Origin: Vicugna vicugna
Lineage: Eukaryota
NCBI GenBank assembly: GCA_013265495.1
Contig: MU058213.1
Coordinates: 868,001 to 932,000 of the forward strand
DNA: 64,000 nt
Direction: 5' to 3'
In this document: piece after piece, positions 14,475 to 61,900 of the stretch
Position numbering within the stretch: the first letter of the stretch is position 1
Layout: each line of letters starts with the position of its first letter
Notes under the pieces: model-generated
Databases searched by the model: none
What the model was told of the DNA's origin: nothing
The model's input: the letters and a program-made list of their open reading frames with translations, nothing else
Program-made: the position numbers and the translations under genes

Positions 14475-17400
14475 CAAAACATTCCATTCAAATTCAGCAG
14501 AATATACATTATTTTCAAGTGCACATGGGAAATTCTCCAGGATAGGTCACACGTTATGCCACAAAACAAGTCTCAATATATTTAAGAAGACTGAAATCAT
14601 ATCAAGCATCTTTTCCAGTCACAATGCTATAAGACTAGAAGTAAACTATAAGAAAAAAAACTTGAAAAAACACAAACATGTGGAGGCTAAAAAATATGCC
14701 ACTGAACAACCAATGAGTCAAATCAAAGAAGAAATTTAAAAAATACCTAAAGACAAATAAAAATGGAAACACAATGATCAAGATCTATGGAATACAGCAA
14801 AAGCAGTTCTAAGAGGGAAGTTCGTAGCAATACAAGCCTACTTTGGAAAACAAGAAAAATTTCAAATAAACAATTAAACCTTTTACCTAAAGGAACCAGA
14901 AAAAGAACAAACAAAATCCAATGTTACTAGGAGGGAAAAAAAAGATCAGAGTGGAAATAAATGAAATAGAGACTACAAAACAAAACAAAACAAAAAACCC
15001 AAAACCTGAAACAAGTCAATGAAAGTAAGAGATGATCCTTTGAAAAGATAAACAAAATTGATGAACTATTAGCCAGACTCAAGACAAAAAGAGAAAGGGC
15101 CTAAATAAACAAAATCAGAAATGAAAGAGACGTTACAACTGACACTACACAAAAAAACCATGAGATTACTATGAATAATTATATACCAACAAAATGAACA
15201 ACCAGGAAGAAATGGAAAAATTCCTAGAACTGTACAATCTGTCAAGACTGAATCAGGAAGAAATAGAAAATAGGAGCAGACCGATGACCAGTAATTAAAT
15301 TAAATCAGTAATCAAAAAACTACCAACAAACAAAAATTTAGGACTAGATGGCTTCACAGATTATTTCTACCAAACGTAAGAGTTAACACCTAAATCTATC
15401 TCCTCAATCTGTTCCAAAAGAATTGAAGAGGAAGGAACACTTCCAAATTCATTCAACAAGCCCAGCATCTTCCTGATACCAAAACCAGACAAAGTCACCA
15501 CAAAAAAGAGTACAGGCCAACATCACTGATGAGCATAGTTGCAGAAATCCTCAACAAAATATCTGCAAACTGAATTCAGTTGTACATTAAAAGGATCACA
15601 CACCATAATCACGAGAGATTTATCCCAGGGATGCAAGTATGTTTCACTATTCACAAATCAATCAATATGATACACCACATTAACAAAGTGAAGAATAAAA
15701 ATCATATGATCATCTCAATAGATGTAGAAAACTTTTTGAGAAAATTCAATATCCATTTATGATAAAAACTCTCAACAAAATGCATACAGAGGGAATATAC
15801 CTCAACATAGTAAAGGCCTTATATGACAAACCCACAGACAACATCATAATCAACAATGAAAAGCTAAAAGCATTTCCTCTAAGATTAGAAACAAGACAAG
15901 GATGCCCACTCTTGCCACTTTTATTCAAAATGATATTGAAAATATTAGCCACAGAGATTAGACAAGAAAAAACAAGTGAGAAGAATCCAAATCAAAACAG
16001 AAGAAGTAAAACTCACTGTCTGCAGATGACACGATACTATACACAGAAATCCTTAAGATGCCACCAAAAGACTATTAGAACTAATAAAGGAATTCAGCAA
16101 AGTTGCAGGATAAAAAATTAATATACAGACCACTGGTGTTATTTCTATACATTAATAATAAACTATCAGAGAAATTATGAACATAATCCCATTTACAACT
16201 GTGTCAAAAAGAATAAAATACCTAGAAATAACTCTAACCAAAGAAGTGAAAGACCTGTATTTGGAAGAGACACTGATCAAAGAAACTGAAGATGATACAA
16301 ACAAGATGAAAGATATATCAGGCTCATAAATTGGAAGAATTAATATGGTTAAAATAAACATACTACCCAAGGCAACTACCATATTCAATGCAATCTCTAT
16401 CAGAATACCAAAGGCATTCTTCACAGAACAAAACAAATAATTCTAAAATTTGTAAGGAAACCCAAAAGACACTCATTAGCCAAAGCAATTTTGAGAAAGA
16501 AGTACGAAGTTAGAGGTATCATATGCCCTGATTTCAAACTATACTACAAAGCTACAGTAATCAAAACAGTATGGTACTGGCACAAAACCTGACACATAGA
16601 TCAATGGAATAGAAAGGACAGCCCAGAAAAAAAAAGACTCTTTCATGGTCAATTAATCTACAATAATGAGGCAAGAATATACAACATGGAAAAGACAGTC
16701 TCTTCAACAAATGGTATTGCAAAAACTGGACAGCTACATGCAAAAGAATCAAACTATTTTCTCACACCTCTTAGAAAAATAAACTCAAAATGGATTAAAG
16801 ACTTAAATGTAAAACCTTAATCTCTTAAAAGAAAACACAGGCAGTACATTCTTGACATCAGTCTTAGCAATATTTTTTTGGATCTATCTCCTCAGGCAAG
16901 GGAAGCAAAAGCAAAAATAAACAAATAGAACCACATCAAACTAAAAAGCTTTTGCCTAGTGAAAGAAATTATCAACCAAATGAAATGGAACAACATATTT
17001 GCAAACGATATATCTAATAAGGGGTCAATATCTAAAATACACAAAGAACTCTTACAACTCAAATCATAAAAACAAATGACTTGATTAAAAAATGGGTGGA
17101 GGACCTGAAAAGACATTTTTCCAAAGAAGACATACAGATGGCCAACAGGCACATTTTTCATGGCTCAGCATCACTAATGACCAGAAAAATCCAAGTCAAA
17201 ACCATAATGAGGTATCACTTCACACTGGTCAGAATGGCTATCATCAAAAAGACAACAAACAGTAAGTGTTGGTGAAGATTTGGTGAAAAGGGAGCCCTTC
17301 GTATACTGTTAGTGGGATTGTAAATTGGTGCAACCAGTATGGAAAACAAAACACTAATTTGAAAAGATATATGCACCCTTCTGTTCATTAAAGCATTATT

Positions 17401-19316: not shown

Positions 19317-19459
19317 GGGGGGAGGGTATAGCTCAAGCAGTAGAGTGCATGCTTTGCATGCACTAGGTCCTGGGTTCAATCCCAGTACCTCCTCTAAAAA
19401 TAAATAAATAGATAAATAAAACAAATTACCCCCCACCCCCCCAAAAAAAGAAAAAAAAA
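19317..19459 (+). mobile_element. tRNA-derived SINE (camelid Vic-1-like)
   Basis: ggggagggtatagctcaag A-box, gggttcaatccc B-box, A-rich tail; imperfect TSD cttcattatagtt / ctttattacagtt. Confidence 0.85.
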
Positions 19460-23753: not shown

Positions 23754-23843
23754 CTCTTCTCCGCTGTACTGCTTCAAACAGTGCAAAAATCGGCATGTGT
23801 TAGAGAGCCAGAAGGAGACAGTTTCAAAATCATCACCTCTTTT
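23754..23843 (-). CDS. MYO5A: Myosin Va globular tail exon ([30 protein letters not shown])
   Basis: 90 bp; acceptor tttcag, donor GTGAGA. Confidence 0.96.
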
Positions 23844-23962
23844 CTGAAAGAGAGAATAAGCCTAAATTAGCTCTTTCTTTAGGGAAATAACAGCCTGAAA
23901 AAAACTGAACAGATACCAGAAGGCCCATTTCCTTCACTTACCATTAACAACAATTATAAAAA

Positions 23963-23999
23963 TAAGAGTCTCATGCTCTACCGACTGAGCTAGCCGGGC
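23963..23999 (-). pseudogene. Retroposed 5' half of tRNA-Lys(CTT) (tailless retropseudogene)
   Basis: Minus strand GCCCGGCTAGCTCAGTCGGTAGAGCATGAGACTCTTA matches tRNA-Lys-CTT nt 1-37 as recalled; flanked by identical 16-bp direct repeats at 23950-23965 and 24004-24019. Confidence 0.92.
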
Positions 24000-24874
24000 G
24001 CCGACAATTATAAAAATAAATCACATTGCAGCTGTAAAGCCTTACATCACTGCTAAAGAATTTCAACCACTGGGTTCACTGGTTGGTTGTTACTTTGCTT
24101 AGCATCCGTTTTCTTGCCGTTAGAAAATGATGCCCATTCATTCAGATATTAGCTTAGCAGTCCCTTTAAGCAGAAGACAATTCACCAAGCCACAGTTTAC
24201 CTAAACTCACTTCAGAGGGGAGGGTTACTGAAGGGAATCAGAAAGGACTAAAAGCACAAAAGGGAATCACAAATATTTGTGAAGCACTGAAACCCAGATT
24301 AGGTTAAAAATCTTCTCGATGATAAGACACAATTCTGAGCAGCAAATGAGAAACGGGGTGGAGGAAGTCCTGTGCAGAGCAGTGGAGAGCTTGCTCTTCT
24401 TCAGGACTGGGCCACATGTCAAACAACCTCTGCTAAATCAAAACAGGGATGCAAGACAAACACACTTCAGTTCAAAACAGGGATGTGAAACAAATGTACA
24501 CCCACTTTAAATGGTATCAAAAGGGTGTTATGTTCTAGGACTTACTCCTTTTTAATCTTTAAACAATTTGGTACAATTATTAGTCAAGTTAGATAAATGC
24601 CTTCTTGCAATTAAAATGAGAAGGAAAAAACTTCATGATCTGGTTTTGTGGCCTTTGTAGGAGTTGACTTAAGGAGCAGTAAAACTCGTAGTCTATCTAA
24701 ATGTAATACAGCATCAATACACCAAGAATTAAGTGAGTTACATTCAGAAGACATTCATCAATTTTTGAATGTAAATCTTCAGAAATTCCCCCACTTTAGT
24801 AACTGTAGAATGTGACTACACAGAATATCTGTGCAATAGGGACTGAGAACCAGCATTTTTCAAAAGTTATAACC

Positions 24875-25062
24875 AAGGGCTAGGGGGGTGAGTGTGTTTA
24901 ATGGGTACAGAGTTTCAGCTGGGGAAGGTAAAAAAGCTGTGGAGATAGATGGTGGTGATGGCTGCACACCAATATGAATGCACTTAATGCCGAAACTATG
25001 CACCGAAAAATGGTTAAATAGTAAATTTTTAGTTGTGTATGTTTTATCACAATTTAAAAAAA
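24875..25062 (+). mobile_element. L1MB-like 3' end
   Basis: tttaatgggtacagagtttcag...gatggtggtgatggctgcacacc...aaaatggttaa...cacaatttaaaaaaa. Confidence 0.8.
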
Positions 25063-25880
25063 TTGTTCACAAAAGACATCCTAGATTTGAGAGAATCCAA
25101 GAGGCATATTAACTGTTCACTCATCCGCATCCTAAAAGCTCTCGTTAAGTTAGATAATCAGACAGCAAAGTACCCGGAGCACATTCTCTTAGCTCCTCAC
25201 AGAAACAGTTGAGTTAAAACTAAGAATAATGTTCCTTGTTTCTCTAGAGTTGAGAGGATGATTATGCAATGTGACTCAGTGATTACTGGGTTATGTAGGG
25301 CTTTCTGTTCTGTTATATAATTTTGCTGCCTTTCCAAGTCCTTTCTCTCTGCTGAGCTTCCATGTGTTGCTCTCACATGGAACCAGGCACTTTAGGTAAC
25401 AAAAAAAATTATGGGGTGAGTTGGAGAATAATGAGAAGAAAAGCTGGAAGAGAAATTTTTATGTCTTATCAGACCTCTTTTTATATGAATGAGCTATGTA
25501 GTACTGAACTTATTTAACACCTATTTTAACTAGAGCATCATATTCCCTGTATACATGAACTTCACTAAGTATTTTTAATTTAGTTCTAAGTAAGACCTCA
25601 AAGCAGACTATTTCTATAAAGCAACTTAATTTATTCCACAATTAAATGCAGATATATTAAATTAATTTTGATTACTGTTCAACTTGAGCCCTGTTTTGAA
25701 AAAAGGCACACAGACACGTTCCAAGAACGCCCGTTTCCTACAATGGCAGTTACCAGTTACGATTGGAAAGTGGCTGTAACTGGCAACTAAGTGCTCAAGT
25801 GTAAGGAAGGAAAAGTACCCCTGTGCAGACTCTGTCATCATTAATGTGCATTATGAGATTACTGTTGAACATGAACTGAC

Positions 25881-42970: not shown

Positions 42971-43143
42971 GTGTCCTTTCTTGTTNNNNNNNNNNNNNNN
43001 NNNNNNNNNNNNNNNNNNNNNNNNNNNNNNNNNNNNNNNNNNNNNNNNNNNNNNNNNNNNNNNNNNNNNNNNNNNNNNNNNNNNNNNNNNNNNNNNNNNN
43101 NNNNNNNNNNNNNNNTATATATATATATATATATATATATATT
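42914..43143. repeat. (TA)n microsatellite spanning a 130-N assembly gap (42986-43115)
   Basis: Direct reading. Confidence 0.95.
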
Positions 43144-43774: not shown

Positions 43775-43867
43775 GGGCGGTGGCCATACCTCAGTGGTAG
43801 AGCGCATGCTTAACAGGCATGAAGTCCTGGGTTCAATCCCCAGTACCTCCACCAAAAAAAAAAAAAA
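43775..43867 (+). mobile_element. Short tRNA-derived SINE (same family as 19317)
   Basis: ctcagtggtagagcgcatgct...gggttcaatccccagtacctccacc plus poly-A; TSD aacagcacactttag / aatagtacactttag. Confidence 0.85.
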
Positions 43868-45104
43868 TAGTACACTTTAGAACCCAAGGGGCCCATTCTA
43901 TTTGTCTAAATAGTATATAGCTGATCCTTTAGTCAACATTTACTCTAAAGCCGGGTCTCACAGAGAAGTTGAAATAACAGAATACACTTCAAATACCATG
44001 ATCTTAGAGACCAGTTCCAAGATAACTTTAATGCCAGTTAGAGACCCACAAATAGTTGCTTTTGAATTTCAAAGTTTATAAGAAACATACTTTTAAAAAA
44101 AAAATCTCACTTTTATCCTAATGCTGTCCTTTTGTGACTTTATAAATGCACACTTAGAGAAGACAAAACATAATCCGATAAAAGCTATAAACAAGAGCCT
44201 ATATTTTACTGAATTTTTAAAATCTTTACTATAAACACCACATACAGCAGTTCTTCAAGTAAGTTTTATAAATATTTGAGTGCACATTTCAAAAAAGAAA
44301 ATTTCTTTTTTCTCTTTTATTGAAAGGCAGACAATCTTTTTGTTCTATTCAGGGCCACACTGGGATTTTTAAGTTTTAAATAATAATTCAAAGAATCAGT
44401 TTCTATAATAAATAATGCTACATGTATTCTCTGATACCTGAGGATCTACACGAGGTGGTTTTGAACTTTCAGTGAACAAGGTAACTTGATCTAATGAACT
44501 AATCCACAAGAAAGGTGGTAGAAAGCAGCCAGTCCTTCCCTTACTCAGCCTACCTTAGCTAAGAAGCAGTAGCCGGGGCATGGGAGCAAACTTGGACTGC
44601 CGGCACTGGGAATGGCCTGACTCACTGCTCAAAGCGTCTCCACCAAGACAGTGACCAGAAGTTCTGAAAGGGTTGCACCACGTAGGAAAATCCCACCCTT
44701 CCCAGGAAGGGTGTGCTGGGCTCCTCAGGCTCCTCCTCGCCCTTGGCCAACAAACCCACAGCTGGTAGAAATGAGTGTGGGAGAGCCTGTGCTTCCGGTG
44801 TGCTCCAAGTTAAGGGCTTCCCCCCCTCACTTGAGGATGTCTTCCCAGAACTACCACTGTGAGTCACAGATCTGACTGTCAGCTAGAAGTCACGGAGGCC
44901 TCTCCATGATCCAGACCAGAGCCTATGGCATCCATTATCTTCCCACTGACCTCTCAAATAGGGAGAAGTCAAATAGGAAATTACCTTGTAAATATCAAAA
45001 TGACTTGGAGGCCAGAAAGCATCAGTTGCATATATTGGGGCAGACTTATAAACTATTAGGATTAAATAAAAGTATTACTAAAATTAAAAAAAAATTATAA
45101 TTAC

Positions 45105-58967: not shown

Positions 58968-61900
58968 TTCCAACAGCAGTGCATGAGGGTTCCCTTTTTA
59001 CTACATCCTTGCCAACACTTGTTATTTGCTGTCTTTTTAAGAATAACCACTCAGAGAGGTGTGAAGTAATATCTCATTGTGTTTTTAATTTACATTTCCC
59101 TGAAGATTAGCAATGTTGAACATCTTTTCATGTGGTCTGTTGGCCATCTGTATGTCTTCTTTGGGAAAATGTCTATTCAGATTTTCTATTCATTTTTTAA
59201 TCAGGTCATTTGTTTCTGATTTGAGTTGTACGAGTTCTTTGTATATTTTGGATAATAACTCCTTATTAGATATATTGTTTGCAAATATGTTCTCTGATTC
59301 AGTAGGCTGCTTTTTCATTTTGTTGATAGTTTCTTTCACGTGAAAAAAACTTTTTAGTTTGGTGTAGCCCCAGTATTTTTATTCTTTATATTTGTTTTTG
59401 TTTCCCTTGTCTGAGGAGACAGATACACAAAAATATTGCTGAGACACATGTCAAAGAATGTACTATGTTTTCTTCTAAAAGTTTTATTGCTTCAGATCTT
59501 ATTACATTTTAGGTCTTTAATCTATTTTGAGTTTATTTTTATAAACAGTGTGAGAAAGGAGTCCAATTTAATTCTTTTGCATGTAGCTGTCCAGCTTTTC
59601 CAACACCATTTATTGAAGAGACTGTCTTTCCTCCTTGTATTTTCTTGCCTCCTCCATTGTAGATTAACTGACAGTGTAACTGTGGGTTCATTTCTGGGCT
59701 CTATTCTGTTCCATTGGTTGATGTCTCTGTGCCAGGACCATGCTGTTTTGATGACTGTAAGTTTGTGATACAGTTTGAAACCAGGCAGCATGATACCTCC
59801 TGTCTTGTTTCTCTTTCTCAAGATTGTCTTGGCTGTTTGGGGTCTTCTGTGTCTCCATACATATTTTAGAGTTACTTGTTCTAGTTCTGTGAAAAATGCC
59901 ATTCGTACTTTGACAGGGATCACACTGAATCTGTAGATTGCCTTGGGGAGTACTGTCATTTTAGCAATATTATTTCCTCCAATCCAAGAGCACAGTATCT
60001 ACAAGCACAGTTTATTTTTTCATTTGTTTGCGTGGTCTTCAATTTCTTTCATCAGTGTGTTACAGCTTTCCAAGTATAGGTCTTCTGCATCCTTAGTTGA
60101 AATTATTACTAGGTATTTTATTGTTTTTGATGTGATTGTAAATGGGATTTTTTAAATTTCTTTTTCTGACAGTTCCTTTATTAATGTACAGAAACACAAC
60201 AGATTTCTGTATATTAATTTTGTATCCTTCAACTTTACTGAATTCGTTTATAAGTTCTAATAGTTTCTTGGTGGTGTCTTTAGGATTTACTATATATGGT
60301 ATCATATCACCTGTAAACGGTGACAGTTTTGCTTCTTCTTTTCCAATTTGGATTCCTTTTATGTCTTTTTCTTCTCTAATTGCTGTGGCTAGGACTTCCA
60401 ACACTATGTTGAATAAAAGTAGCAAGAATGGGCATCTTTGTCTTGCTCCTGATCTTAGAAATGCTTTCAGATTTTCACCATTCAGTGTGATGCTGACAGT
60501 ACGTTTGTCATACATGACCTTTATTATGTAGAGGTAGGTTTCCTCTATATCCACTTTGTTGAGTGTTTTTTAATCATAAATGGATGTTGAATTTTGTCAA
60601 AAGTTACCCATTCTGCGGCTCTATGTCTTTTGATTAGAGCACTCAGTCTATTTACATTGAAAGTAATTATTGATAGGTATGTACCTATTGCCATTTTGTT
60701 AGTTGTTTTCTGTTGTTGTTTTTGTTTTGATCCTTTCTTTTGCTCTTTTCCTTTGTGACTTGATGACTATCTATAGTGCTATATGTTTCTTTTTGTGTGT
60801 GTATCTATCTATTATATGTTTGTGGTTACAATGAGGTTCACACAGACAACATATAATAATAATGATAATAATAATAATATCACATATGTGATTATTTAAA
60901 TTTGATGATCTCAAGTTCAAACACATTGTAACAACCATGCAGTTTTAATTCCCCCTTCCACAATTAATGTTTTTGGCATCCTATTCTACTTCTTTTTGTT
61001 TTGTGTATCTCTTAACTACTTACTGTGGATATAGATGATTTTACTACTTTTGTATTTTAACCTTCCTATGAGCTTTATATGTGGTTGGCCTACTACCAAA
61101 CTATATGTTTACCTTTACTAGTGAGATTTTTCCTTGCATAATTTCCATATTTCTAGTTGTGGCCTTTTCTGCTTAGAGAAGTCCTTTGAACATTTCCTGT
61201 AAAGCTGGTTTAGTAGTCCTGAACCCTTCAGCTTTTGCTTGTTTGTAAAACTCTTTTTGTCTCTCATTCAAATCTGAATGATAGCCATGCTGTGTAGAGT
61301 ATTTCTGGTTGTAGGATTTTTTGCTTTTATCATTTTGAATATATATAGTGCCACTCCTTTCTGGGCAGCAAAGTTTCTGCTGAAAGTCTGCTGATGGCGT
61401 TATGGGATTTTCCTTTTATGTAACTGGTGCTTTTCTTTTGCTGCTTTGAAGATTTTCTCTTTAATTTAAATTTATAATTTTTACCATTTTAATTATAATG
61501 TGTCTTGGTGTGGACCTCTTTGGGTTGATCTACTTTGAGACTCTCTTTATTCCCTGGACCTGGATACCTGTTTCCTTTCCCAGGTTAGAAAAGTTTTAAG
61601 CCATTATTCCTTCAAATAAGTTTGCTGCCCCTTTCTCCCTTCTCCTTCTATGATCTCTATAATGCAAATGTTGTTATACTTGATATTGTCCCAGAGATCT
61701 CTCTTAAACTATCTTCATTTTTTAAAATTCTTTTTTCTTTCAGTTGTTCTGAATTAGTGATTCCCACTACTCTGTCTTCCTGTTCACTAATCCATCTCTG
61801 TACCATCTAACCTACTGTTGATTCCTTCTAGTGTATTTTTAAAATTTCAGTTACTGTATTTTCAGCTCTGTTTGATTCTTCTTTATATTTTCTAACTCTT

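Follow-up and report, generated by a model that had tools for sequence, protein, structure and literature searches.

A tailless retropseudogene of precursor tRNA-Lys(CTT) in an intron of MYO5A

Tailless copies of tRNAs and the MYO5A element

Tailless retropseudogenes derived from tRNAs have been described by Schmitz et al. (2004, as cited) and by Noll et al. (2015; PMC5322556), and the relevant parts of PMC5322556 and PMC4476161 describe both the tailless class and its dependence on L1. The human entries in the supplement of PMC5322556 include 28 copies of tRNA-Lys(CTT) and 9 of tRNA-His(GTG); among 21 of the 28 Lys-CTT rows, 16 entries are 36-39 nt long. Pre-tRNA retropseudogenes are noted in a section of PMC4476161, and part of PMC2912911 deals with human- and chimpanzee-specific tailless copies of noncoding RNAs. 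The class, including its human Lys-CTT members, is therefore already known, and the locus reported here is an additional member.

Our analysis covered a 64-kb stretch of DNA (the window), in which an element of this class lies within an intron of MYO5A (Table 1). Like the published tailless tRNA retropseudogenes (PMC5322556), the element is complete at its 5' end and truncated at its 3' end within a loop, carries no A tail, and is enclosed by a duplication in the range of 8-35 nt with short complementarity at the junction; precursor sequence is allowed in that class too, and the human Lys-CTT entries are of about the same length. It differs from them in lineage and locus, the A run of their TT/WAAAAWW motif is missing from its target, and a probable source gene could be traced through its leader. 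The 3'-truncated snRNA retropseudogenes of Doucet et al. (2015; PMC4476161) are described, in the sections on their formation, as arising in the way that we propose below, through template-choice priming at a purine patch that is single-stranded and follows U, but their template was an snRNA whereas ours would be a pre-tRNA. The tRNA-half/LINE-1 chimeras presented in parts of 10.1101/2025.02.02.635956 also hold a copy of tRNA nt 1-37 inside one duplication; however, they are joined, mostly in antisense, to L1, whereas the MYO5A duplication encloses no L1.

Finally, tRNA-derived SINEs are likewise of tRNA origin and mobilised by L1, but they retain both boxes of the promoter, have an A-rich tail and are able to re-amplify, whereas the MYO5A copy has neither the B box nor a tail. 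Two full-length SINEs of this kind, with A-rich tails, are present in the window at 19318-19440 (+) and 43776-43870 (+). ARAGORN calls them tRNA-Ala and tRNA-Val; we rejected them as true tRNA genes and take them to resemble the camelid Vic-1 family, a name that part of PMC8605555 did not confirm. The window also contains long inverted arms at about 15500-17150 and 59100-60600 (71-92% identity), consistent with two opposite L1-like fragments, and a run of N at about 42986-43115 between two (AT)n arrays, with flanking sequence repeated 175 nt apart, which is probably an assembly gap artefact.

Table 1. Coordinates of the element and of the surrounding MYO5A features in the window
Feature	Position	Strand	Remarks
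MYO5A exon downstream of the element, 90 nt, C-terminal tail region	23754..23843	-	30/30 amino acids identical to myosin-Va chains in PDB
MYO5A intron, about 2.04 kb, phase 0, holding the element	23844..25880	-	upstream exon (26035-25881) predicted on the basis of splice motifs and an open frame
Target-site duplication, 3' copy relative to the element	23950..23965	-	first 3 nt are also tRNA nt 35-37 (junction microhomology)
tRNA-Lys(CTT) nt 1-34	23966..23999	-	acceptor 5' strand, D arm with A box, 5' anticodon stem, into the loop
4-nt pre-tRNA 5' leader	24000..24003	-	identical to flank of tRNA-Lys(CTT) gene on contig C8969 (L004/L017)
Target-site duplication, 5' copy relative to the element	24004..24019	-	formal length 16 bp, reduced to 14 bp by a nick between tRNA nt 36 and 37

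Structure of the element and its setting in MYO5A

The two copies of the target-site duplication were identical at 16/16 positions, and no oligo(A) tail was found; the tRNA sequence passes straight into the duplication, as had been predicted. Apart from an (AT)n run and the N gap, the 64-kb window contains no other perfect 16-mer repeat with a spacing of 20-150 nt. The minus strand between the two copies consists of 38 nt, namely the 4-nt leader and tRNA-Lys(CTT) nt 1-34, and nt 35-37 are common to the insert and the downstream copy of the duplication. The 41-nt insert originally proposed thus stands as the length of the match, but only 38 nt of it are unique. The tRNA part does not differ at any position from a tRNA-Lys(CTT) gene that ARAGORN calls elsewhere in the genome, which confirmed the assignment to this tRNA.

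Measured against the definition in PMC5322556, which calls for an almost complete 5' end with at most 20 nt of precursor sequence for tRNAs, the element begins at nt 1 behind a leader of 4 nt. The definition further includes a 3' truncation of at least 10 nt and a length of at least 30 nt (37 of the 73 nt are present here), a duplication of 8-35 nt with at least 70% identity (16/16), the absence of an oligo(A) tail, as found here, and truncation in a loop with 2-18 nt of complementarity to the target (here the end lies in the anticodon loop and 3 nt are shared). Assignment to the tailless tRNA retropseudogenes is thus upheld on these structural points, and the element is a real, well-formed and ordinary example of this known class, derived from pre-tRNA-Lys(CTT).

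Because the B box and the 3' half of the tRNA are absent, the insert cannot act as a working tRNA gene. Neither ARAGORN nor Rfam at its gathering score called a tRNA on the insert; a weak match to the Rfam tRNA model (23914-23999, E 1.3) fell below that score. The Rfam E-value matches to YrlA, SAM-V and snoRNAs near the element were far under their gathering scores and were attributed to chance. We also rejected a functional tRNA gene or a tRNA-derived SINE, which would have A and B boxes, a cloverleaf or SINE body and a terminator or A tail, as only nt 1-37 are present.

The element lies in sense orientation to MYO5A, 107 nt upstream of exon 23754-23843, in agreement with the predicted distance of about 110 nt from the acceptor, and the identity of this exon to myosin-Va (Table 1) supports the assignment of the gene. 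The peptide of the upstream exon is one that we take to be MYO5A as well. A near-consensus, strong donor-like site on the minus strand (23936-23944, with G/GTAAGT at 23942) lies 8 nt beyond the element; the gene strand of the window has three such 7-mers in all. Candidate exons of 36-83 nt that use this site would grow with the insert to 90-137 nt, and the insert brings three extra AG sites. The element could in this way alter MYO5A splicing, for example by forming a bigger poison exon, but we regard such an effect as very improbable. The acceptors near the element are weak (6-10 pyrimidines in 17 positions versus 13 at the true acceptor), the candidate exons built on 11 upstream AGs carried an in-frame stop in 10 of 11 cases and a frame shift in the remaining one, and the insert left intact the branch-point-like motifs that lie 14 and 24 nt from the true acceptor. 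A strong-looking alternative acceptor occurs at 23894 (minus strand), 51 nt upstream of the true one, and splicing to it would lengthen the exon by 17 codons, among them an in-frame stop. As judged from these motifs, no effect of the element on MYO5A splicing is evident. The element is probably neutral and persists by drift, neutrality being our default assumption and not a result; nothing points to a consequence of every pre-mRNA carrying a copy of a tRNA half.

Source gene, route of insertion and age

The exact 38-nt sequence occurred four times in the 2.03-Gb assembly, and a reversed control sequence did not occur at all. In addition to the MYO5A site, it was found on contig C8969 within a complete tRNA-Lys(CTT) gene and in two independent half-copies, each with its own duplication of 16-18 bp. 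The C8969 gene comprises a full tRNA with a T run 5 nt downstream and has His and Gly genes in its vicinity. Of the 15 tRNA-Lys(CTT) copies of full length, this gene alone matched the leader over 4 nt, and the other 14 matched at most 1 nt; a match of this length has a control frequency of about 4% (3.8%) against 15 genes, and the comparison extends to the genes present in the assembly. The leader shared with the two half-copies recurs in one more, L025, which gives three other independent insertions with it (L013, L016 and L025). The C8969 gene is thus the probable source of the MYO5A insert, a good but not certain assignment that the sibling copies strengthen, and it appears from these shared flanks to have given rise to at least three other insertions. 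The reading of the four extra bases as a pre-tRNA leader pointing to its source locus was therefore borne out by the comparison with tRNA genes.

Our search of the genome used tRNA-Lys(CTT) nt 1-34 with up to 2 mismatches, to which copies shorter than 34 nt or more diverged are invisible. It returned 60 matches, comprising 15 full-length copies and 45 halves, and the flanks of all 60 were examined. A T4 run was present within 40 nt of 13 of the 15 full-length copies; the two others, L011 and L045 (the latter with 7 mismatches), are probably pseudogenes. Two of the halves, L050 and L053, duplicate one event, which leaves 44 independent halves among the 45. The halves ended at nt 37-39 in 43 of 45 cases, and 41 showed a clear duplication of 8-21 bp, with a mode of 16; the four without a convincing duplication, one of which (L063) may abut nt 1, were excluded from the counts of spacers and target sites. 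This class of retrocopy is common in the genome, as the proposed scan for similar insertions of tRNA halves with duplications showed.

A spacer of 2-13 nt separated the duplication from nt 1 in all 41 halves with a clear duplication. The spacers matched the flank of a gene over at least 4 nt in 19/45 halves and over at least 3 nt in 33/45, and because these values exceed those at control positions (3.8% and 12.5%, respectively), we regard the spacers as real leaders. RNase P trims the 5' leader from pre-tRNAs. Since the MYO5A insert has a leader, as do 41/41 Lys halves with a clear duplication, its template would have been a precursor that RNase P had left untrimmed, and not a mature 5' half of the type found in stressed cells or sperm; the link to abundant mature Lys-CTT 5' halves that the original prediction implied is accordingly not supported. 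A retrocopy of a mature half would start at nt 1 without a leader, and was rejected on account of the gene-matched 4 nt. The insert could still descend from a mature half if these four bases had been added without a template, and mature-type copies do occur in the same genome (13/19 for His and 6/17 for Gly-TCC). However, the four bases equal the flank of one gene and recur in the three insertions named above, and none of the 41 Lys halves starts at nt 1. The absence of mature-type Lys halves is meaningful because the same method detects such copies for other tRNAs. We therefore consider a mature template extremely unlikely for the MYO5A insert, and on these flanks it may be regarded as largely refuted.

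The target sites of the Lys halves had T at -1 in 38/41 cases and A at +1 in 40/41, resembling the L1 site. Against the motif TT/WAAAAWW, which in PMC5322556 is a tendency and not a filter, the MYO5A target fits at positions -2 to +1, but its A run is missing, which counts against an L1 origin and agrees with the original remark that the nick falls short of the canonical L1 site. T at +2 occurred in 7/41 target sites, the MYO5A site included, so the unusual target is typical of the family. Involvement of L1 in the MYO5A insertion is most likely, to judge from the target sites.

We consider it very likely that the element is a neutral tailless retropseudogene formed when a nuclear precursor of tRNA-Lys(CTT) underwent target-primed reverse transcription. 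As suggested by the length of the duplication and the site bias, L1 ORF2p would have nicked an AT-rich site, and the freed DNA 3' end would have annealed near A37 to 1-3 bases of the anticodon loop. Reverse transcription would then have proceeded from nt 37 to nt 1 and through the leader to the first base of the transcript, and cleavage of the second strand 14-16 nt away would have produced the duplication. The nick position is ambiguous, and a nick between nt 36 and 37 would make the true duplication 14 bp; it cannot be fixed more closely because Gly-TCC targets match up to 5 nt of the loop. The snRNA copies behave in the same way, since the passages on them in PMC4476161 note that a longest-match duplication takes in T's and shifts the apparent nick.

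The template may instead have been a 5' precursor fragment already cut by an anticodon-loop nuclease, which would lead to the same class by another route. The end points are indeed very sharp (nt 37-39 in 43/45 Lys halves and nt 36 in 18/19 His halves), nt 36 is given in part of 10.1101/087106 as the RNase L cut position in tRNA-His, and the relevant section of 10.1101/2025.02.02.635956 favours pre-cut halves for the tRNA/L1 chimeras. However, His copies with leaders of 18-20 nt stop at nt 36 just as the mature-type copies do, whereas the site choice of RNase L, according to the same part of 10.1101/087106, requires matured tRNA. Moreover, the targets of the Gly-TCC copies themselves match the loop, as priming predicts, and the passages of PMC5322556 on 5S and U2 report that no truncated intermediates were found. 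We therefore ranked internal priming of an intact precursor ahead of the pre-cut fragment, to which we assign a possible but clearly smaller share.

The insert and its duplication contain no mismatch, and all 4 CpG are intact. This pristine state is no proof of polymorphism, because 6/45 Lys halves were equally clean over tRNA nt 1-36 and the duplication, and the bound on age reaches 4-16 My. If rates of 1.5-2.5e-9 per site per year are assumed, and 8-15 times these at CpG, the 95% upper bound was 6.6-16 My; the rate of 5e-9 implied by part of PMC8605555 gave 4.2 My. The probability that the element would still be pristine after 5 My was 0.10-0.39.

Among the 24 best-ranked DNA runs, 19, with five organism labels, held 0.96-0.98 of 52 sampled words of the filled site. 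Thirteen of these 19 were flagged as a possible source, and the other six represented three studies and two labels. With an empty allele, 57 of 471 words would be missing and a share of about 0.88 would be expected, and heterozygotes would score fully; the chance that an empty allele would lose at most one of the 52 words was P = 0.007, and at most two, P = 0.033. The low-share runs, at 0.58 (organism G), 0.71 (a sample that also gave 0.98) and 0.00 (three runs), count neither for nor against presence. DNA runs of five organism labels thus appear to hold the filled site, which points indirectly to an insertion shared across taxa. A very recent insertion still segregating within the species would account for the lack of any mismatch and for the intact CpG, and a ranking that places the best holders first would hide non-carriers. 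Nevertheless, the shares in the 19 runs, the six unflagged ones included, exceed that of an empty allele, and the pristine state retains an appreciable probability at 5 My. Polymorphism of the MYO5A insert is therefore disfavoured and seems to us quite unlikely, and the description of the element as very recent and possibly polymorphic is unproven.

Template maturity across tRNAs

A search with tRNA-His (L065-L091) gave 27 matches, comprising 8 full-length copies and 19 halves, of which 18 end at nt 36. Thirteen of the 19 have 0-1 nt before nt 1, and the other six carry leaders of 18-20 nt, which match a gene flank over at least 8 nt in 5/6 cases. Four His halves have a clear single G at -1, and four others are ambiguous with the duplication. 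Mature tRNA-His carries an added G-1, as described in part of 10.1101/087106, and a G at -1 is encoded by none of the 8 tRNA-His genes; at least 4 His halves thus keep what would be the enzymatically added G-1, outside the sequence of all 8 genes. The difference between Lys and His in leader versus mature start was highly significant (Fisher p = 5e-9).

For tRNA-Val, 30 of 39 matches were examined, and 15 were halves; 14 of these had a duplication, and spacers of 3-7 nt were present in 13/14. The 5' part of tRNA-Gly(TCC) gave 127 matches, twice the Lys-CTT count, and the first 20 exact matches of the 127 contained 17 halves, 6 abutting the duplication and 11 with a leader of 2-6 nt. Several Gly-TCC copies (L122-L141) share one recurring leader of 4-5 nt, suggesting one dominant source gene, and one Gly half (L126) sits inside a copy of a SINE family also present in the window. 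The tRNA-Glu query had 46 matches. As read from their flanks, the Lys-CTT halves derive exclusively from leader-bearing precursors (41/41) and the Val halves nearly so (13/14), whereas Gly-TCC is mixed (11/17 with a leader) and the His halves are mostly of mature origin (13/19).

That both processed and unprocessed tRNAs serve as templates of retropseudogenes is stated in the relevant part of PMC5322556. Our literature search found no paper on the split between precursor and mature templates for each tRNA or on a fossil G-1, which is weak evidence that none exists; Schmitz et al. (2004) lay outside that search and may already give such counts for each tRNA. The sole fresh point of our analysis is this template maturity at the level of the family, with His halves mostly mature and some with G-1, as opposed to Lys precursors, and the contrast across tRNAs is the only lead worth following. 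Lysine tRNA carries the t6A37 modification. Modifications of mature tRNAs, such as this one, might gate L1 priming, and the leaders might map the germline transcription starts and activity of each gene; that this is both true and unreported we consider doubtful. More generally, tailless tRNA halves may preserve, as fossils, the maturation state in which L1 can copy each tRNA in the germ line, a view whose boldest forms are rather unlikely.

By itself, the MYO5A locus is of little importance. The insert nevertheless provides its lineage with a clean presence/absence marker and clearly exemplifies the copying of a nuclear precursor tRNA by L1, and intronic copies of tRNA halves can draw small-RNA reads during mapping, which should serve as a warning. 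If the contrast in template maturity holds in other mammals, genomes alone would reveal for each tRNA whether L1 used a precursor or a mature template, and this would bear on the place at which L1 ORF2p encounters its templates and on the choice between cleavage and internal priming.
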